In this document: piece after piece, positions 12,339 to 32,251 of the stretch | How the letters are laid out: every line of letters begins with the position of its first letter | Numbering within the stretch: the stretch's first letter is position 1 | DNA from: a virus | Reading direction: 5' to 3' (one strand) | IMG/VR virus record: IMGVR_UViG_3300032236_000971 | Coordinates: 32,001-96,000 of that record | Length of the DNA stretch: 64,000 nucleotides | Notes under the pieces: model-generated | The model's database searches: none | What the model saw: only the letters and a program-made list of their open reading frames with translations | Told to the model about the DNA's origin: nothing | Translations under genes and position numbers: made by a program

Positions 12339-13047
12339 TGCTAAAATTATTGCTATCACACAACCATTGTTGCATAAAGGTGGTGATGTTATCTATGACG
12401 AATCTGGATTTATTATTGGCGAGGCTGATGGACCAAAACTTACTGTAGATGAGTTTATTGCTTATGTTGCTCGTGTATCTAATCCATCAAACCAAAACAA
12501 CACATTGACTGCACCAAAGCTGCTTCGTTATCTAGCCAAGCATAAGCACTGGTCGCCATTTGAGATGGTCAATGTGGTTATGGAAATAAATACTACTAGA
12601 GACATTGGTCGTCAGATCCTTCGTCACCGTTCCTTTACCTTTCAGGAGTTTAGTCAGCGCTATGCGGATCCAACCAAAGATATGGGTTTCGTCACTCGTG
12701 CCGCCCGTTTGCAAGATACAGCCAATCGCCAGAATTCCATCGAAACTACCGATGAAATACTACAGCAAAAGTGGACTGAGTATCAAGACTTCTTGTCGCA
12801 ACACTCACAGCAAGTTTACCAGTGGGCTATCAATAACGGTATAGCAAAGGAGCAAGCACGTGCGGTATTACCTGAAGGACTTATTCTTAGCCGCATGTAT
12901 ATGGCTGGCAGTCTTCGCTCTTGGATTCATTATTGCCAACTGAGGTCTGGCGTTGAGACTCAGAAAGAGCATCGCGAGATTGCTATTGATGCTTGGTATC
13001 AGATTATCGAGCATTTCCCATCTCTTAAAGATGCCCTCGATCTATAA
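12331..13047 (+). CDS. thyX: Flavin-dependent thymidylate synthase
   Basis: HWSPFE and RHRSFTFQEFSQRY ThyX motifs. Confidence 0.95.
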   Translation: MNNAKIIAITQPLLHKGGDVIYDESGFIIGEADGPKLTVDEFIAYVARVSNPSNQNNTLTAPKLLRYLAKHKHWSPFEMVNVVMEINTTRDIGRQILRHRSFTFQEFSQRYADPTKDMGFVTRAARLQDTANRQNSIETTDEILQQKWTEYQDFLSQHSQQVYQWAINNGIAKEQARAVLPEGLILSRMYMAGSLRSWIHYCQLRSGVETQKEHREIAIDAWYQIIEHFPSLKDALDL

Positions 13048-13050
13048 ATA
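13043..13050 (+). promoter_or_regulatory. T4-type late promoter for the curli/cyclase operon
   Basis: TATAAATA 20 nt upstream of the csgF start. Confidence 0.75.
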
Positions 13051-13070
13051 GCGGGTAATGGAGATTAAAG

Positions 13071-13508
13071 ATGAAGAAATTAGCGTTTATACTATGCCTA
13101 ATTTCTTCTGCTTCTTTTGCTACTGAAGTTCAATTTGGGTTTAAGAGTCCGTCGTTTAACGGTAATGGTTACTCTTCTCATGTACTTACTATTGAGAATC
13201 TCGAAGCAACAAGAAAACAGAAGATATTAGACGACGCAAAGGCAGCGGCTGAGAAGGCAGCTTCCGATGCTAAGAACACGAACCTTGCTAAGTTTTTAAA
13301 CAACTTAGAGAGCCGTATTTACGCTACTATTTCTCAGAACATTGCTTCAGAGCTATTTAAGTCTGGTGGAGCTACTACGGGAGCGTTTGATATTCAGGGT
13401 AATCATTTACAGTGGGTATCAGACGGTTCAACTATAACATTAAACATTACAGATCCGGGTGGAAGTGTGACGCAGGTGGTTGTTCCTTATGGGAGTTTAG
13501 CATGGTAA
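13071..13508 (+). CDS. csgF: Curli assembly protein CsgF-like
   Basis: Signal peptide, then F.FKSPSF.G.G..S.....EN and F..NLESRIY motifs; directly before csgG. Confidence 0.8.
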   Translation: MKKLAFILCLISSASFATEVQFGFKSPSFNGNGYSSHVLTIENLEATRKQKILDDAKAAAEKAASDAKNTNLAKFLNNLESRIYATISQNIASELFKSGGATTGAFDIQGNHLQWVSDGSTITLNITDPGGSVTQVVVPYGSLAW

Positions 13509-14311
13509 AGTATGCGGCATTAGCATTAGCATTGTTACTTGGTGGGTGCACGGGTAAGCAGGTAACTCAGGCTGAGATTGAAAAGCAGATTGACGAGCCA
13601 GAGATCATTACGCACAAGCGTTTTAATGAGATAGTAAACATCACCCCTCCAGCCGAAGATCCTATTCCTATTGCTGTTTATCGCTTTCAGGATCTAACAG
13701 GTCAACGTAAGCCTAATAATAATTATGCTTCACTTAGCTCGGCAGTAACACAGGGCGCTGAAGTATTCCTTATTAAGGCATTAAAGGATGCAGGTAACGG
13801 TAAGTGGTTCCTTCCAGTTGAGCGTGTAGGACTTGAAAACCTAGTAAAGGAACGTCAGCTTATCCGTTCACAAAGAGAAACATATGAAAAGGATCAGGCA
13901 AAGCCTCTAGTTCCTTTAATTGTAGCAGGGAGTATGATTGATGGCGGTATTGTGGGATATGATACTGATATTGGGACTGGTGGTATTGGCGCTCGTTTTC
14001 TTGGTATTGGAGCCGATCAACAGTATAGAAAAGACGAAATCACGGTCATGGTCCGATTGATATCTGTAAATACAGGTGAAATACTACTATCTACAGGGGC
14101 TACTAAAACAATTTATTCTACTGGTACTAATTTAAATGTATTGAAGTTTGTTGATGCTGGTACTAAGTCAGTAGAGTTTGAAGCTGGTTCGTCTATTAAT
14201 GAACCTACTACCTATGCTGTAAGAATTGCTATTGAAGCAGCGATTGTTGATATGATTAAAGAGGGCGCAAAGAAGAAAATATGGTCGTTTAAAAAGGAAA
14301 AAAAGAAATGA
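13502..14311 (+). CDS. csgG: Curli secretion channel lipoprotein CsgG
   Basis: Lipobox LLGGC; AVY.F.DLTGQRK, S.AVTQG and ERVGL.NL.KERQLIR CsgG motifs. Confidence 0.92.
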   Translation: MVKYAALALALLLGGCTGKQVTQAEIEKQIDEPEIITHKRFNEIVNITPPAEDPIPIAVYRFQDLTGQRKPNNNYASLSSAVTQGAEVFLIKALKDAGNGKWFLPVERVGLENLVKERQLIRSQRETYEKDQAKPLVPLIVAGSMIDGGIVGYDTDIGTGGIGARFLGIGADQQYRKDEITVMVRLISVNTGEILLSTGATKTIYSTGTNLNVLKFVDAGTKSVEFEAGSSINEPTTYAVRIAIEAAIVDMIKEGAKKKIWSFKKEKKK

Positions 14312-14985
14312 AACTAGTAGCAAGGATGATCGCGTTTTTGACATTCTTGGTTATGATTCAGTATGCGCATGCGGGAAGTAATAATAGTATCTATATTGAT
14401 CAAATTGGTGATGGTTCTAATATAACTTTGACGCAAACTGGTAGTGGAAACGGAATCGGTTCATCATCAAATCGATCTTCGTTTAATGGCAATAACTTAA
14501 CGGTAACAGTATCTCAAATAGGTAATCAAAATAACCAACTAATCAACGTGGTTGGTGATGGTGTAACATTGAATTCAACTATCACTGGAAATACGAACCA
14601 GGTTGATATTGATTGTACATCTTGTACGGCTTCGTCTATAACTAGTTCGGTAACAGGTAGCAGTAACCTTGTTACTATAACTAATGAGAATTTAAACAAT
14701 ACAGCTTTAACAATTGAATCTGATAATAACACTGTAACATTAACTAATAATTCCACAGCGGTTGCTGGCGTGAATAATGTCATCAATATCTCTGGGGGTA
14801 ACGGTAACCAATTGATTTTAAGTCAGACTGGTCCAGCTGGCGCTCTTGGTCACAAAGTTGATTTAGCAGTAACTGGTGCACTTAATAATGTTCAAATAGG
14901 ACAAGGTGGATCAGTTGACTCAGTCGTTAATAGTACGATCACTGGCTCTAGCAACACTCTTATTATTAAGTCTAACCACAACTAA
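14308..14985 (+). CDS. Curlin-like (CsgA/CsgB-type repeat) secreted protein
   Basis: Signal peptide; N/S/G/T-rich Q.G..N repeats. Confidence 0.75.
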   Translation: MKLVARMIAFLTFLVMIQYAHAGSNNSIYIDQIGDGSNITLTQTGSGNGIGSSSNRSSFNGNNLTVTVSQIGNQNNQLINVVGDGVTLNSTITGNTNQVDIDCTSCTASSITSSVTGSSNLVTITNENLNNTALTIESDNNTVTLTNNSTAVAGVNNVINISGGNGNQLILSQTGPAGALGHKVDLAVTGALNNVQIGQGGSVDSVVNSTITGSSNTLIIKSNHN

Positions 14986-16021
14986 CGCTGAGGTTGGCAA
15001 GGTCACAGAGCAATCTGGACCTACTGAAATACGCAGAGATAAGAATTCTTTACCTAGCTCTATCTCTTCTGAGGTGGAGATGAACGACGTTATAACTACA
15101 GCTAATGCAAAAGCTGGTATTACGTTTAAAGACGATACAAAGGTACAGATAACCGAGCAGAGTAAACTTGTTATTGATACGTTTGTTTATGATGGTGAAA
15201 AGAAAACGGGTAAGCTCGGTATAAAAATGGCGCTTGGCACTATTAAGTACGCCAGTGGCCAAATAGCAAAGAATGATCCAACTCAGGTTATGGTTGAAAC
15301 GCCAACAGCAACGATTGGTGTAAGAGGCACAGATTTTTCAGGAACTGTAGATGAAACAGGAAGATCAACTATTATATTGCTACCTTCTTGCCCAAGCGGC
15401 TGGAAGAATATTGATCGCGATTGTGTCACTGGGAATATTAGCGTTACTACTATCATGGGTACTGTCTGGTTAACTAAACCGTTTGAGTCAGTTACAGTTA
15501 ATACAACTATCGCTCAACCTAAGTCAGCTATACTAAATCTTAGTTTAGATCAAATCAATAATATGCTGATCGTTACGCCGCCTAAAGAAGTAAGGGAAGA
15601 AAGAACTAGAACACAAACTAAAGCATTTAACTTCCTCGATCAAAACTTTCTTGATAAAGATTTATTAAAATATGATGGCCTTGATAATAATGCGTTGGAT
15701 AAACCGAATGTATTAGATAGAAACGCATTAGATAGTGATTACCTAATGAACGCATTAGACGTTATAGCTAATCAGTTTCTTAGTAACGAGCTTGATCAAT
15801 ATAACGCACTGCTGCCTAAATACGATAAATCAACTGGTTTGAAATTTACTGTTGATAGTGAAGTTTTAAATTTATATCGTGAAACAGTAAGTAACTACTA
15901 TGATATCAATTTAAATATCTATAGAAGTTTAACACTGAATCTTACTCAAGATAATTTGACAATTAAACAATTAGTAAATGGACCTGGTACTACTACGATA
16001 ACAATAAAGCAGGGCAACTGA
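14906..16021 (+). CDS. FecR-domain periplasmic protein
   Basis: Signal peptide; F.DDT.V...EQS.L.ID and TPTATIGVRGTDF FecR motifs; start overlaps the curlin gene. Confidence 0.85.
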   Translation: MDQLTQSLIVRSLALATLLLLSLTTTNAEVGKVTEQSGPTEIRRDKNSLPSSISSEVEMNDVITTANAKAGITFKDDTKVQITEQSKLVIDTFVYDGEKKTGKLGIKMALGTIKYASGQIAKNDPTQVMVETPTATIGVRGTDFSGTVDETGRSTIILLPSCPSGWKNIDRDCVTGNISVTTIMGTVWLTKPFESVTVNTTIAQPKSAILNLSLDQINNMLIVTPPKEVREERTRTQTKAFNFLDQNFLDKDLLKYDGLDNNALDKPNVLDRNALDSDYLMNALDVIANQFLSNELDQYNALLPKYDKSTGLKFTVDSEVLNLYRETVSNYYDINLNIYRSLTLNLTQDNLTIKQLVNGPGTTTITIKQGN

Positions 16022-16284
16022 TGAAAACATTACTCGCACTTCTATTAATGACAACACCTGCTTTCTCGCAGACAGTAAATAATGCAACCGTGAATTTACA
16101 AGGAGCTAATCAAAGTGTTAGTATTACTCAGTTTGGCAGTGATAAATCTGCTACCGTTACTTTTAATGGGTATGGGCTTAATGCAATTATCAGTCAATCG
16201 GGTTCTAATCCTCAGTCTTTTTCTTTATCTGTTACTTGTACTAGCTCTTGTCCTACTTCACCTTACATCATTAACCAATACTGA
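16021..16284 (+). CDS. Small secreted curlin-repeat-like protein
   Basis: Signal peptide; Q.G repeats; C-x3-C as in the larger curlin. Confidence 0.6.
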   Translation: MKTLLALLLMTTPAFSQTVNNATVNLQGANQSVSITQFGSDKSATVTFNGYGLNAIISQSGSNPQSFSLSVTCTSSCPTSPYIINQY

Positions 16285-18341
16285 TGGAAACGCTAGGCAA
16301 ATATCTTACAAGCACATGGGCAGCTGCTATCAGCGCCTGTCTCCTGTTGATATTGTATGTAATCAATCCAAGCTTCATCCAAACACTACAATTGAAGACA
16401 TTCGATTACCTGATAACTTCGCTTGACAAAAAGCAATCAGAAGAGATTGTAATTGTTAACTTTGGCGAAAAGTCAGTAAAGCAATTTGGTCAGTGGCCAT
16501 TTGATCGCCGAGATATTGCTAAGACAATTGAAAAGCTTAAAGAACACGAAGCAGCCGTTATAGTTGCTCCTATATTATTTTCTGAAAAAGACAGAGCAGG
16601 TGGTGATGATGAATTGGCTAATAGTCTCGGAGGTGTTGTTATTGCTCAAACACCTACTACGCAAAATGTTCCACCTGACGCTGTACGTCGTGGGTTTGCT
16701 GCTATTGGTCCTGTTGATCCTATCAGCTATGTCTATCGTTGGAATGGTGGATTACGCCCTATTAATAAGCTGGCAGAATCTGCTGAAGGAGTCGGCGTTC
16801 TCGCCACTATCCCTGAAATCGATGGCGTTGTCCGTCGTGTCCCTCTACTTGTTAATATTGCAGGTAATCTTTATCCATCATTACCTCTTGAAACCCTTCG
16901 TGTCGCTGCTGGTGATCCTTCCTATCAAATTAAAACAGGTGATGCTGGGCTTGAGTTTGTGCGCATACCTGCTTTTCCTGCTGTTCCTGTCGACGAAAGA
17001 GGGCGTGTTTGGGCAACATGGAATACAAAGTTCGAAGAGGTAGAAGCAACGGAAATTGATGACAGAGTCAAAGGTAAGATAGTAGTTCTTGGCTTGACTA
17101 TTGAAGGCGTTGGCGGTATAATCAGTACTGCAATGGGTGAAAAATGGGCGCATTCGATACAGGCTAGTACGCTTCAAACACTTATTGATGGAACTTCTAT
17201 TTCTCGCCTATCCGTAGCAAGGCTATTAGAAGGAATACTAATACTAGGAATACTGCTCCTATTTCTGTATAGCGTTCCAAAAGTGTCTGTAAAGATGACA
17301 GTTCCATTTTATGCTCTCTTTATTGCGAGTATATCTTATGGCTCGTATTATTTATTTCAAACCCAGCTTCAGCTGTGGGATCCTAGCTATCTAATTCTAT
17401 CTGGATCAATACTATTTGCTCACCTAATATTCAATAACTTTGCTCGTGAGTTTAGATTAAAGCAACAGATCAAGAAGCAATTTGGTACATACTTATCGCC
17501 AGCATTAGTTGAAAAACTTCAAAAGAACCCTGAATTACTTAAATTGGGAGGAGAGACCCGTGAGTTATCGATCATGTTCACAGACGTTCGCGGCTTTACT
17601 AATATTAGTGAGCATTATGGAGCTGACGTACAAGGTCTTACTCAAATAATGAATCGCTATATGACAGCGATGACTGCTAAGATTATTCAGAACGAGGGCA
17701 CACTAGATAAGTATATCGGTGACGCTCAGATGGCATTTTGGAATGCGCCACTTGATGATAAAGAACACGCTAAACATGCAGTTAAAACAGCATTGGAGAT
17801 GTTAGATGACCTCAAAAGATTTAACACCGAGATTTTGGCTGAAGGTATCCCTGCCTTTGGTATGGGTCTTGGCATTAATACAGGTAGTGTCGTTGTGGGG
17901 AACATGGGATCTTCTCAGCGTTTTGATTACACCTGTCTTGGCGATTCTGTTAACCTGGCAAGTCGTTTGGAAGGACAATCAAAACCATACCATGTGAAAA
18001 TGGTTATTGGTCCTGAAACATATGAGTATGTTAAGGATGAATATCTATGCTTAGAGCTTGATTGTCTCGCTGTTAAGGGTAAGGCAATAGGTGTTAAAAT
18101 ATACACTATTGTTAATAAGAATGGTTTGAATATTGCAGCTTCGCGTTCGCATGCACAGTTTTTAGAATACTATCGTCAGATGGCATGGGGTAAAGCTCTT
18201 GAGTATATTCCTTACATAGAAAGAGCTTTTGAAGGTGAAATGAAAGAATACTATAAGATGATGGCTGAACGTATTGAAGAGTATAAAGTTAATCCGTTAC
18301 CAAAAGATTGGGATGGCGTATATAGGACAAACTCAAAATGA
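16284..18341 (+). CDS. CHASE2-domain class III adenylate cyclase
   Basis: GQWPF.R and DGVVRRVP CHASE2 motifs; 3 TM helices; FTDVRGFT, DKYIGDA and YTCLGDSVNLASRLE catalytic motifs. Confidence 0.93.
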   Translation: METLGKYLTSTWAAAISACLLLILYVINPSFIQTLQLKTFDYLITSLDKKQSEEIVIVNFGEKSVKQFGQWPFDRRDIAKTIEKLKEHEAAVIVAPILFSEKDRAGGDDELANSLGGVVIAQTPTTQNVPPDAVRRGFAAIGPVDPISYVYRWNGGLRPINKLAESAEGVGVLATIPEIDGVVRRVPLLVNIAGNLYPSLPLETLRVAAGDPSYQIKTGDAGLEFVRIPAFPAVPVDERGRVWATWNTKFEEVEATEIDDRVKGKIVVLGLTIEGVGGIISTAMGEKWAHSIQASTLQTLIDGTSISRLSVARLLEGILILGILLLFLYSVPKVSVKMTVPFYALFIASISYGSYYLFQTQLQLWDPSYLILSGSILFAHLIFNNFAREFRLKQQIKKQFGTYLSPALVEKLQKNPELLKLGGETRELSIMFTDVRGFTNISEHYGADVQGLTQIMNRYMTAMTAKIIQNEGTLDKYIGDAQMAFWNAPLDDKEHAKHAVKTALEMLDDLKRFNTEILAEGIPAFGMGLGINTGSVVVGNMGSSQRFDYTCLGDSVNLASRLEGQSKPYHVKMVIGPETYEYVKDEYLCLELDCLAVKGKAIGVKIYTIVNKNGLNIAASRSHAQFLEYYRQMAWGKALEYIPYIERAFEGEMKEYYKMMAERIEEYKVNPLPKDWDGVYRTNSK

Positions 18342-19039
18342 TTTCATTTGTAATACCTTGCTATAACGAAGAAGCACATATTAAAGATTGTATTCGCTCT
18401 ATCAGAAAACATATATGGTATATACCTTATGAAATTATTGTAGTTGATAATAACTGTACAGATAGAACTGCTGAAATTGCGGAAGAAGAGCTTGCGAAAG
18501 TTGTTAAAGAAACACGTAAGGGTGTTGTATTTGCAAGACAAGCTGGTTACGAAGCTGCAACTGGTTGGCTGATTGCTAATATCGATGCTGATTCTAAGAT
18601 AACCGATGGATGGGTTTGGGAAGCAATGAGTATGTTATCAAACCATGATACTGTCGCAGTAACTGGTCCATTAGAATACGAAGGTGCTGGTTTAGGTTTA
18701 CGTATAATGACGAAGCTGTATTACCTGCTTGCTAAGTTTAGTAACGATCATATTGGCGTGTTTCTTCAAGGAGGCAACTGCATGATCAAGAAGAAAGCTT
18801 TAGATGAAGTTGGTGGTTACGATGGTACTATTATTTTCTACGGCGAAGATACGATGACTGCAAAACGCATACAGCACCTCGGTAAAGTTGTATTCAATAT
18901 GTATATGGTAACAACAACGTCACCAAGAAGGCTTAAAGAGCAAGGCGTCATAAAAACTACATGGTTATATCTTACTAATTATTTTTCTGTGACTTTCAAA
19001 AATAAATCTACAACTAACGACTATAAGGATTTTAGATGA
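18338..19039 (+). CDS. Family 2 glycosyltransferase
   Basis: IPCYNEE, VVDNN.TD, DAD, GED and SPRR motifs. Confidence 0.88.
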   Translation: MISFVIPCYNEEAHIKDCIRSIRKHIWYIPYEIIVVDNNCTDRTAEIAEEELAKVVKETRKGVVFARQAGYEAATGWLIANIDADSKITDGWVWEAMSMLSNHDTVAVTGPLEYEGAGLGLRIMTKLYYLLAKFSNDHIGVFLQGGNCMIKKKALDEVGGYDGTIIFYGEDTMTAKRIQHLGKVVFNMYMVTTTSPRRLKEQGVIKTTWLYLTNYFSVTFKNKSTTNDYKDFR

Positions 19040-19764
19040 AGTCATACAAAACAGTATTCATATCAGATTTACATCTGGGTACAAAAATGAGTCAAGCAAA
19101 TAAGCTGCTTGATTTTATGAAAACATTCGAATGTGAAAAGATATATCTAGTAGGCGATATTGTTGATTGTTGGGCTATGTCAAGAAAAATGATATGGTCT
19201 CAATTTCATAATGACGTAATTCAAAAGCTACTCCGTAGAGCTAGAAAAGGTACTGAAATTGTTTATATTCCCGGAAATCACGATGACGTTATGCGCAACT
19301 ATTGTGATAACGAATTTGGTCATATTATCATGGTTAGGGAAGCCGTACATGTGGGAGTCGATGGCAGGATATATCTTGTTACTCATGGTGATCAGTTTGA
19401 TGTTGTAATTCGTAATGCCGAATGGCTTGCTCACCTTGGCGGCTGGGCATATGACCTTAGTATAAACATGAGTCGTTTCATCAATAAAATTAGGACCGTG
19501 TTTGGTTTAAAATACTGGTCATTGTCAGCTTATCTAAAGAACACAGTAAAAGAATCTGTAAACTTTATCGGTAATTATGAAGAAACACTATCGAAGTATG
19601 TGAAAGGTAAGAAGCTAGATGGAATTATATGCGGTCATATTCATCATGCTAACATTCGTGATATTGGCGGTATTAGATATATGAACTGCGGCGATTGGGT
19701 AGAGTCATGTACCGCCTTAGTAGAAAACCATGACGGTACATTTGAAATAGTTAAGTGGGTATAA
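19036..19764 (+). CDS. PlcP/LpxH2-like metallophosphoesterase
   Basis: SDLHLG, GDIVD, GNHD, HGD, GHIH and NCGDWVESCTAL motifs. Confidence 0.85.
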   Translation: MKSYKTVFISDLHLGTKMSQANKLLDFMKTFECEKIYLVGDIVDCWAMSRKMIWSQFHNDVIQKLLRRARKGTEIVYIPGNHDDVMRNYCDNEFGHIIMVREAVHVGVDGRIYLVTHGDQFDVVIRNAEWLAHLGGWAYDLSINMSRFINKIRTVFGLKYWSLSAYLKNTVKESVNFIGNYEETLSKYVKGKKLDGIICGHIHHANIRDIGGIRYMNCGDWVESCTALVENHDGTFEIVKWV

Positions 19765-20118
19765 TTACTTGTGTTTGCTGGCTAGTTCTTCAGCAGCCTT
19801 AACTTGTTTATCAGCAGCTTCAAGTTCGCGTTGTTGAGCTTTGGCTGCTGTTTCTACGTCATGTAAATGACGCTCTGATTCAATTTCTTTACCACGTAGC
19901 TGTAGTACAATATTAATTTTTTGATTAAGACGGATTAAATCATTGTCAAGCATGCGAATACGATCTATAAGAGCAATAAGTACCGTACTAGCTTCGCTGG
20001 TGACTGGTTTGATTTCTTTGGTTGCCCATGTCCATACATAATAAATCATATACCCCATACCGCCAGCGGCTACAATAGGGAATCCGTATTTGTTAATAAG
20101 TTCTGCTAACCCACCCAT
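19765..20118 (-). CDS. YvrJ-like membrane and coiled-coil protein
   Basis: LINKYGFPIVAA transmembrane helix followed by coiled coil. Confidence 0.65.
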   Translation of the reverse strand: MGGLAELINKYGFPIVAAGGMGYMIYYVWTWATKEIKPVTSEASTVLIALIDRIRMLDNDLIRLNQKINIVLQLRGKEIESERHLHDVETAAKAQQRELEAADKQVKAAEELASKHK

Positions 20119-20399
20119 TAGTCTCTCCTTGCATCATTTTTGCCGTCAGCTCGGGCAATTCTATCAACGTCTGGCTTTACACCAAGCGCATTTGAAACTA
20201 ATGTGTCAATACGAATAACGTCATGATTCATTGTCTTCACACGATTATCAAGAGCAGTAATGATACCAGAAAGACTTTTAACAGAGCTCATAACACCAGC
20301 AAGGATAAACTTCATTGTAAGAAACACGAAATATCCACCAGCACACGCAGCTGCAATAGGGAAACCTACTTCTGCGACTAATTTAAACCATTCATCCAT
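20118..20399 (-). CDS. YvrJ-like membrane and coiled-coil protein (paralogue of neighbour)
   Basis: LVAEVGFPIAAA transmembrane helix; AL.NR...M.HD.IR similar to neighbour. Confidence 0.65.
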   Translation of the reverse strand: MDEWFKLVAEVGFPIAAACAGGYFVFLTMKFILAGVMSSVKSLSGIITALDNRVKTMNHDVIRIDTLVSNALGVKPDVDRIARADGKNDARRD

Positions 20400-20416: not shown

Positions 20417-20445
20417 TTGACTAATTAGTAAAAATATAGTATATT
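20417..20445 (+). promoter_or_regulatory. Sigma70-like promoter for nrdA
   Basis: TTGACT-N17-TATATT. Confidence 0.6.
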
Positions 20446-20449
20446 TATA
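20442..20449 (-). promoter_or_regulatory. Late promoter for the minus-strand membrane gene pair
   Basis: TATAAATA on the minus strand. Confidence 0.7.
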
Positions 20450-31867: not shown

Positions 31868-32251
31868 ATGAAAAAACAGTCTGATAACGTCATTATGTTC
31901 CCGTCAAGAGGTAATCCGCCTCAACAAGTTTCCAATGAAAAAATCAAAGTTGATATGAAAATGGTTAAGTTCAACCATATCAACGAAGCGTTGGAAACAA
32001 TCATCCCTATGCTGTTCAACAATATCACGATAGCTGGGTTTGATATCCTTCCTGAAGACGAGGAAGAAGACGAGAACATCAAGGACAATGCTTTGATTGT
32101 TGAATCGATTCGCTCTATCCTCTGTAAGTATTATGGGCTGAATCACCCTCTGCAGGAAGTCGCAGAGGATTTTTTCGTTCGTAAAGAGGAAGGCGTGTTA
32201 TCTGTAACTAGGCACCTAGAACTAGACCTGAGCCACTACGACAAAGAGTGA
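31868..32251 (+). CDS. Hypothetical protein
   Basis: NVIMFP N-terminus; TTGACT-N17-TATAGT upstream. Confidence 0.65.
   Translation: MKKQSDNVIMFPSRGNPPQQVSNEKIKVDMKMVKFNHINEALETIIPMLFNNITIAGFDILPEDEEEDENIKDNALIVESIRSILCKYYGLNHPLQEVAEDFFVRKEEGVLSVTRHLELDLSHYDKE

Follow-up and report, generated by a model that had tools for sequence, protein, structure and literature searches.

What would a phage gain from carrying, side by side on one strand, the channel and fibre proteins of a bacterial curli secretion system, a FecR-domain protein and an adenylate cyclase with a CHASE2 sensor domain? This question is raised by a locus in the IMG/VR virus record IMGVR_UViG_3300032236_000971, of which a window of 64,000 nucleotides (nt), positions 32,001 to 96,000, was analysed and is used for all coordinates given here. 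The record itself is 108 kb long and covers ~65% of the genome, and the record-wide searches reported below refer to that part. The cassette region is flanked by genes for primase, ThyX and NrdA, which point to a T4-like phage according to the list of open reading frames (ORFs) and the Pfam matches. The GC content of the phage is ~40%, and a megablast search against a phage collection returned no match. Our answer, to which we give about an even chance and which is built on sequence comparison, structural models and analogy with known systems, is that the operon would combine fibre export with a FecR/CHASE2 sensor that makes cyclic AMP (cAMP), the FecR-domain protein being the likely link between the two.

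Between 13071 and 18341, on the + strand, six intact ORFs follow one another:

13071..13508, + strand: CsgF (Pfam PF10614, 6e-15), with a signal peptide; phrog_35372

13502..14311, + strand: CsgG outer-membrane lipoprotein channel (PF03783, 1e-50), with the lipobox LLGGC; match to E. coli CsgG 3x2r at 6.5e-47

14308..14985, + strand: major curlin, 225 amino acids (aa), secreted (Curlin_rpt 21.7 bits, cut-off 20.7)

14906..16021, + strand: exported FecR-domain protein, 371 aa (PF04773, 1.5e-11), with a signal peptide; start at GTG 14906 or TTG 14915

16021..16284, + strand: mini-curlin, 87 aa, with a signal peptide and two to three QxG strands, ending in IINQY (Curlin_rpt 18.5 bits, below the cut-off)

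16284..18341, + strand: predicted inner-membrane CHASE2 class IIIb adenylate cyclase, 685 aa (CHASE2 PF05226, 1.2e-38, residues 20-327; Guanylate_cyc, 5.9e-21)

A preliminary description of the window had named these six overlapping or abutting genes, and all of them were recovered intact, at the same positions and with domain calls that agree. A signal peptide or a lipobox is present in five of the cassette's proteins. From the first gene to the last, the junctions read ATGGTAA, ATGA, an 80-nt overlap, TGATG and TGATG. Furthermore, the coupling runs on past the cyclase, through ATGA into a gene for a family 2 glycosyltransferase (GT2) and through a further ATGA into a gene for an LpxH-like phosphoesterase, so that the translationally coupled unit comprises eight genes (13071-19764) and not six.

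The cassette itself is known, and in this respect its presentation as a candidate novelty has to be withdrawn. Curli genes in phages were first reported by Zaragoza-Solas et al. in 2020 (PMC7029224). Wittmers et al. (2022) then described in pelagiphages, both myo- and podophages, a block made of CsgF, CsgG, CsgA/B, FecR, a second CsgA/B and an adenylate cyclase, assigned a putative regulatory role to FecR and the cyclase and found the transcripts in metatranscriptomes (PMC9599517). In the same year Buchholz et al. proposed a lysis pore for the Methylophilales phage Melnitz, the curlins, FecR and the cyclase being overlooked (PMC9004378). Indeed, HTVC008M (KC465899) and Melnitz (MZ577097) possess these six genes in an identical order. 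The present analysis adds comparative detail and a sharper hypothesis. With the pelagiphage viral type VIII secretion system (PMC9599517; HTVC008M; Melnitz) the present locus shares gene set, gene order and a T4-like (Kyanoviridae-type) context next to thyX, but its second curlin is only 87 aa long and the GT2 and LpxH-like phosphoesterase genes are coupled to its 3' end. The published podophage versions have a histidine kinase, whereas none was found in the 108-kb record. In terms of sequence the phage represents a divergent clade: compared to their counterparts in the cultured phages its cyclase is 41-44% and its FecR protein 36-38% identical, while the closest IMG/VR relatives of the cyclase are ~80% identical.

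The linkage of the two halves was followed in two sets of IMG/VR loci. The cyclase-anchored sample consists of 80 loci, 46 of which are informative with at least 6.5 kb upstream of the cyclase, and in all 46 CsgF, CsgG, curlin and FecR are found upstream of it in that order. The FecR-anchored sample is more divergent, with contigs of up to 364 kb, and comprises 46 informative loci with both flanks; CsgG lies upstream of FecR in 46/46 and the cyclase downstream in 44/46. In these two samples, then, free reassortment of csg genes and cyclase among phages is not seen. Within this frame the interval from FecR to the cyclase varies: it can be empty, hold an 87-aa mini-curlin as observed here, a second curlin of 340-480 aa, or other genes of up to 5.4 kb in all, and in phage relatives without a second curlin the FecR stop codon overlaps the start of the cyclase. 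In IMG/VR more than 550 contigs carry the cyclase, and for the FecR protein ~5,000 relatives are counted at E<=1e-10 among representatives of 90%-identity clusters. Four very large viral contigs of 264-364 kb also bear the cassette, which is therefore not limited to genomes of pelagimyophage size (~140-170 kb). Moreover, ten contigs with the whole cassette are binned in metagenome-assembled genomes labelled Chitinophagales, Bacteroidetes, Flavobacteriaceae, Legionellales, Rhodobacteraceae and Pirellulales; they are probably of phage origin and were assigned there in error, by coverage or composition, but could hint at hosts.

In bacteria, on the other hand, the two halves were found apart. The cellular sample comprises 70 loci, drawn from Bradyrhizobium, Rhodospirillales, Desulfobacterales, Sulfurimonadaceae, Myxococcaceae, Omnitrophota and others, each with a full-length relative of the cyclase, and these cyclases have the same architecture over their full length (CHASE2, transmembrane (TM) part, class III domain and C-terminal tail). 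No curli gene was observed within 10 kb of the cyclase in any of the 70 loci, and CsgG was found nowhere in three genomes that carry such FecR/CHASE2-cyclase loci. Conversely, neither FecR nor a cyclase was present within ~9 kb of five alphaproteobacterial csgF-csgG-curlin loci, the gene order of which is the one of the phage. Since the curli and FecR/CHASE2 halves are unlinked in the bacteria sampled, the phage cassette represents a fusion of two cellular modules.

The pairing of FecR and CHASE2 is itself recurrent in cells. A FecR-domain ORF lies in the flank of the cyclase in 34/70 loci, is adjacent to it in 23 and stands directly upstream on the same strand in 14, an arrangement that can be likened to the phage loci without a second curlin. 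Such cellular clusters share with the phage the domain pair, often its order and translational coupling, and a FecR domain placed N-terminally after the signal peptide and followed by a variable C-terminal extension; in the present phage FecR and the cyclase are likewise neighbours, with only the 87-aa curlin between them. They differ from the phage in the lack of curli genes described above and in FecR proteins that have no curlin-type C-terminus. A cluster of FecR, CHASE2 cyclase, phosphodiesterase (PDE) and tetratricopeptide repeat (TPR) genes has been reported in Campylobacterota (PMC9239204), and the FecR-domain gene smc02177 adjoins cyaD1 in S. meliloti (PMC5498481). The PDE and TPR genes of the cellular clusters were not found in the phage. 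The CHASE2 cyclases of S. meliloti respond to an external protein signal that passes via NsrA, a beta-barrel protein of the outer membrane, to the cyclase and then to Clr (PMC13001267), so that a relay from the outer membrane to cAMP has a precedent.

The closest cellular clusters, of Bradyrhizobium type (36% identity), contain a giant FecR-Ig-RTX protein and a LapG-like BTLCP protease. In six such loci the order is conserved, with the LapG-like BTLCP peptidase (C93) followed by the giant FecR protein and the CHASE2 cyclase, and the giant protein is 1,600 aa long with an N-terminal FecR domain followed by Ig-like and RTX repeats. Judged by its genes, the arrangement looks like a Lap-type adhesin retention system wired to cAMP instead of cyclic di-GMP. 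With an adhesin-like giant member encoded beside a LapG-like BTLCP protease and the cyclase, this FecR subfamily is connected with surface proteins that are retained.

The FecR-domain protein of the phage was modelled with AlphaFold2 (AF2). In the model a signal helix precedes a beta domain that is well predicted (residues 28-220); a disordered linker rich in Leu and Asp (221-281) then leads to a helix and to a small, less confident C-terminal beta domain. Residues 58-223 resemble the periplasmic cell-surface-signalling domain of PupR (6ovk, Z 15.3), with 4m0n matched at Z 14.8, and residues 27-121 superpose on the RIN of MpIBP (5ix9) with Z 10.3 and a root-mean-square deviation of 2.1 Å over 73/76 residues. 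In MpIBP, an adhesin, RIN is the periplasmic plug by which the protein is retained in its pore in the outer membrane (PMC5550230). A RIN-like fold and the succession of folded periplasmic domain, linker and exported part are thus common to the phage protein and the LapA/MpIBP-type adhesins. The phage, however, has no type I secretion system, no RTX repeats and no LapG/LapD, and export would use CsgG and not TolC; the likeness to RIN is one of fold and layout only, and does not make the protein a LapA-type retention module. The same holds for the FecR/PupR regulators, with which the periplasmic FecR fold is shared while the anti-sigma domain, the TM helix, the sigma factor and the transducer are not. 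Indeed, the signal peptide runs straight into the FecR domain, without a cytoplasmic anti-sigma domain or TM helix, and neither an extracytoplasmic function (ECF) sigma factor (Sigma70_r2) nor a TonB-dependent receptor is present in the record, for which reasons we speak of a FecR-domain protein and not of a FecR anti-sigma regulator. A BTLCP gene was equally not found in the record.

The C-terminal end of the protein, ITIKQGN, fits the pattern phi-x-phi-x-Q-x(0-3)-COOH. This pattern is present in 60/80 phage FecR proteins and in 98/135 curlin-family ORFs, compared to 2/736 of the remaining ORFs in these loci that are 120 aa or longer, and it was observed in none of the cellular cyclase-adjacent FecR proteins. 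To judge from sequence and model, the FecR protein is therefore a hybrid in which a periplasmic domain resembling PupR and RIN is combined with a disordered linker and a curlin-type terminal motif. Public gene calls for this family often give proteins of 312-314 aa that begin at an internal Met59 (window 14906-15080), a start by which the conserved domain loses its first three strands and the protein its signal peptide. The upstream GTG or TTG start, which overlaps the curlin gene by ~80 nt, is favoured by conservation and by the model.

The cyclase consists of a first TM helix, the periplasmic CHASE2 domain, a TM cluster from ~306, a cytoplasmic catalytic domain (426-609) and a conserved C-terminal tail, and its hydropathy profile shows hydrophobic segments at 7-37 and from 306 with CHASE2 between them. 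The best alignment of the cyclase domain is with the class IIIb enzyme CyaB of P. aeruginosa (3r5g, 2.2e-33), in which D434, K476, D480, T533, R546, N557 and R561 all have their counterparts. Among 41 homologues, viral and cellular, each of these residues is either invariant or conserved to at least 90%. The two metal-binding Asp, the Lys/Thr pair and the Asn/Arg that had been read as intact are thus all in place, the class IIIb catalytic set is complete and cAMP synthesis by this enzyme is predicted. A Ser takes the place of the transition-state Asn, here N557, in the cyclase of Melnitz, while the remaining catalytic residues are kept. A complex prediction for the periplasmic domain of CHASE2 (28-312) and the FecR domain (28-220), using 41-row alignments, gave a score of 0.00, which counts neither for nor against a contact between them.

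The curli half was compared with its bacterial counterparts part by part. The N-terminal motif of CsgF that inserts into the CsgG barrel, FxF(K/R)xPxFxGN, is conserved, the phage FGFKSPSFNGN aligning with FQFRNPNFGGN of E. coli CsgF (6l7a). At the constriction of CsgG, the alignment shows N/S/L in place of E. coli Y51/N55/F56. In 32 homologues of the curlin the Q, G and N of its Q-x-G-x-x-N repeats form invariant columns that recur with the spacing of the repeats, and the AF2 model of the protein is a beta-solenoid of ~18 strands, with a predicted local distance difference test score (pLDDT) of 87 and a predicted template modelling score (pTM) of 0.81. In a VIA scan of 48,161 PDB representatives the top match of this model was CsgA of P. 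korlensis (8c50, Z 19.4) and E. coli CsgA (8enq) was matched as well (Z 12.7), in a scan where generic beta-helices likewise score Z 12-16. A Foldseek search of the model against the PDB returned nothing significant, and the profile of the curlin family matches CsgA chains only in the PDB (4.8e-7 and 1.2e-3). The identity of the mini-curlin rests on its QxG repeats and on weak matches of family hidden Markov models to the larger second curlins. On the strength of repeats and model, the major curlin is a secreted CsgA-like solenoid subunit for which the formation of surface fibres is predicted, and fibre export appears as the better-founded half of the cassette's function.

With the curli systems of E. 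coli and Alphaproteobacteria the phage therefore shares CsgG and CsgF homologues together with the CsgA-type repeats and fold of the curlin. In contrast to these cellular systems it lacks CsgE, CsgC and CsgD, its CsgG constriction is changed, and FecR and the cyclase lie within the operon. The absence of CsgE (PF10627) and of CsgD-type (GerE) genes, noted before for the window, extends to the whole 108-kb record; neither of the two is universal outside Gammaproteobacteria (PMC9599517). The preliminary description had suggested a relay from a sensor to cAMP rather than an amyloid export machine. This opposition does not hold, as the Q-x-G-x-x-N repeats, the CsgA-like solenoid and the CsgG-binding motif of CsgF have all been kept. 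The relay taken by itself, favoured by the recurrent cellular pairing, the NsrA precedent and the linkage in phages, is plausible but unproven. The further suggestions of that description, that the cassette could sense superinfection and tune lysis timing, are speculative.

In the reading that we favour, one translationally coupled operon, probably transcribed late, would equip the infected cell with two functions. CsgG and CsgF would form the outer-membrane channel of a type VIII (curli) secretion unit, and the curlin and the small second curlin would be exported and polymerise to surface amyloid fibres. The inner-membrane class IIIb cyclase and its periplasmic FecR-domain partner would constitute an envelope sensor acquired from bacteria. 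The folded FecR/PupR-like domain would remain periplasmic, in the compartment where CHASE2 cyclases have its cellular homologues as companions, and the CsgG channel or the fibre would be engaged by the disordered linker together with the C-terminal strand of curlin type; we infer both this engagement and a contact of FecR with CHASE2. Synthesis of cAMP would then report or respond to the state of secretion, fibre or surface, and may act on host cAMP receptors. In a more specific form, put forward tentatively and in our view unlikely, the FecR protein would be a tether across the envelope: its C-terminal strand would sit in CsgG or in the base of the fibre, as a CsgB-like anchor or nucleator, while its RIN/PupR-like domain in the periplasm would gate the CHASE2 cyclase, so that fibre assembly, load or cell contact would be converted into cAMP.

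The late timing was drawn from a single element upstream of csgF:

13043..13050, + strand: T4-type late-promoter-like TATAAATA, read from the sequence, overlapping the thyX stop codon and lying 21 nt before csgF

The motif is there, and HTVC008M also has TATAAATA 13 nt upstream of csgF. However, its 7 copies in the window, compared to 5.45 expected, amount to no enrichment, and it precedes csgF in 15/55 related loci only, mostly ~27 nt upstream. For these two reasons late expression is a reasonable reading of the motif and not a finding, and the claim is weaker than originally made. A hairpin proposed to mask the ribosome-binding site did no better than shuffled sequence (z -1.12).

Besides this patchy distribution of the motif, several points weigh against a coupling of secretion to cAMP. 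No protein that binds cyclic nucleotide monophosphates was found in the record, so that the output would need to be read by the host. Between FecR and the cyclase lies a hot spot of insertion (0-5.4 kb), the cyclase is inverted in four loci of the FecR-anchored sample and the published podophage versions are often without it (PMC9599517), all of which indicates that the cyclase is not obligatory for the curli part. In S. meliloti the FecR protein SMc02177, encoded beside cyaD1, is not needed for signal perception (PMC5498481). Comparison of the FecR C-terminus with the curlin family using hhalign aligned the last 16 residues only, at 14% probability; FecR and curlin hence share a terminal motif and not a domain, and the C-terminal domain of FecR is not termed a curlin repeat here. 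Finally, the function of the cassette is a prediction in every phage copy. The variable spacing, the inversions, the podophages without cyclase and the dispensable SMc02177 speak, together with the separation of the two halves in bacteria, for the main rival explanation, namely that two independent cargo modules travel together. Curli fibres would serve aggregation, 'sibling capture' or shielding against superinfection, the FecR-partnered cyclase would separately raise host cAMP and reprogramme metabolism, and secretion and signalling would be uncoupled. We consider this possible but rather unlikely: co-inheritance in phages is near-perfect over a deep divergence, down to 35-50% identity, FecR is always found on the curli side, and its curlin-type C-terminal motif, missing in the cellular partners, is hard to explain if FecR serves the cyclase alone.

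Two further proposals start from the channel. The changed constriction of CsgG, the lack of the CsgE gate in the record and the late-promoter-like motif would suit the idea, put forward for Melnitz (PMC9004378), that CsgG and CsgF form a gated channel for lysis timing, pinholin- or secretin-like, and that the curlin-like proteins form no fibres. This seems very improbable, given that CsgG is an outer-membrane lipoprotein and such a pore cannot depolarise the inner membrane, that curlins, of which the Melnitz paper assumed none, do occur and have a CsgA-like fold and invariant positions in the amyloid repeats, and that CsgF has retained its N-terminal CsgG-binding motif. To an even lesser degree do we believe in an uptake device, an idea raised in PMC9599517 and PMC7029224, in which an ungated CsgG pore would admit cofactors or iron chelates and FecR would work as in ferric-citrate signalling. 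The absence of CsgE and the presence of a FecR domain would agree with it, but the cytoplasmic anti-sigma domain and TM helix of a true FecR are missing from the protein, as are an ECF sigma factor and a TonB-dependent receptor from the record, and the conserved curlins and the cyclase would be left unexplained.

The two genes that extend the coupled unit beyond the cyclase are the following:

18338..19039, + strand: GT2 glycosyltransferase (Pfam 3.5e-26), ATGA-coupled to the cyclase stop

19036..19764, + strand: LpxH-family metallophosphoesterase, ATGA-coupled

GT2 is found in few relatives only and represents accessory cargo, and the phosphoesterase recurs in several relatives, directly after the cyclase in four loci and after GT2 in two. 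The best matches of the phosphoesterase are UDP-2,3-diacylglucosamine hydrolases (LpxH), below equivalog cut-offs, and do not place it with the CpdA-type cAMP phosphodiesterases; no homologue lies beside the cellular cyclases, so that a cAMP phosphodiesterase of the Campylobacterota type was rejected. By its sequence matches the pair fits a PlcP-like lipid-remodelling pair rather than such a phosphodiesterase. Between the end of the operon and nrdA, on the minus strand (19765-20399), two adjacent genes encode small paralogous membrane proteins of 117 and 93 aa that could be holin-like, and a minus-strand TATAAATA is present near them at 20442-20449.

Phages that bear the cassette are extremely common in aquatic metagenomes. 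They infect bacteria that are among the most abundant known, and the hosts published so far lack curli genes themselves. Should infected cells produce amyloid fibres along with a cAMP signal, this would have effects on aggregation, particle formation and the spread of phages in the ocean. If, furthermore, the FecR protein acts as the tether outlined above, the widespread cellular FecR-CHASE2 pairs, some of them with a giant RTX adhesin-like FecR protein and a LapG-like protease, would be sensors of the display of surface-anchored proteins. The compact phage version, with its eight genes, two fused cellular modules and curlin-tailed FecR protein, would offer a tractable model for CHASE2 sensors and their FecR partners.

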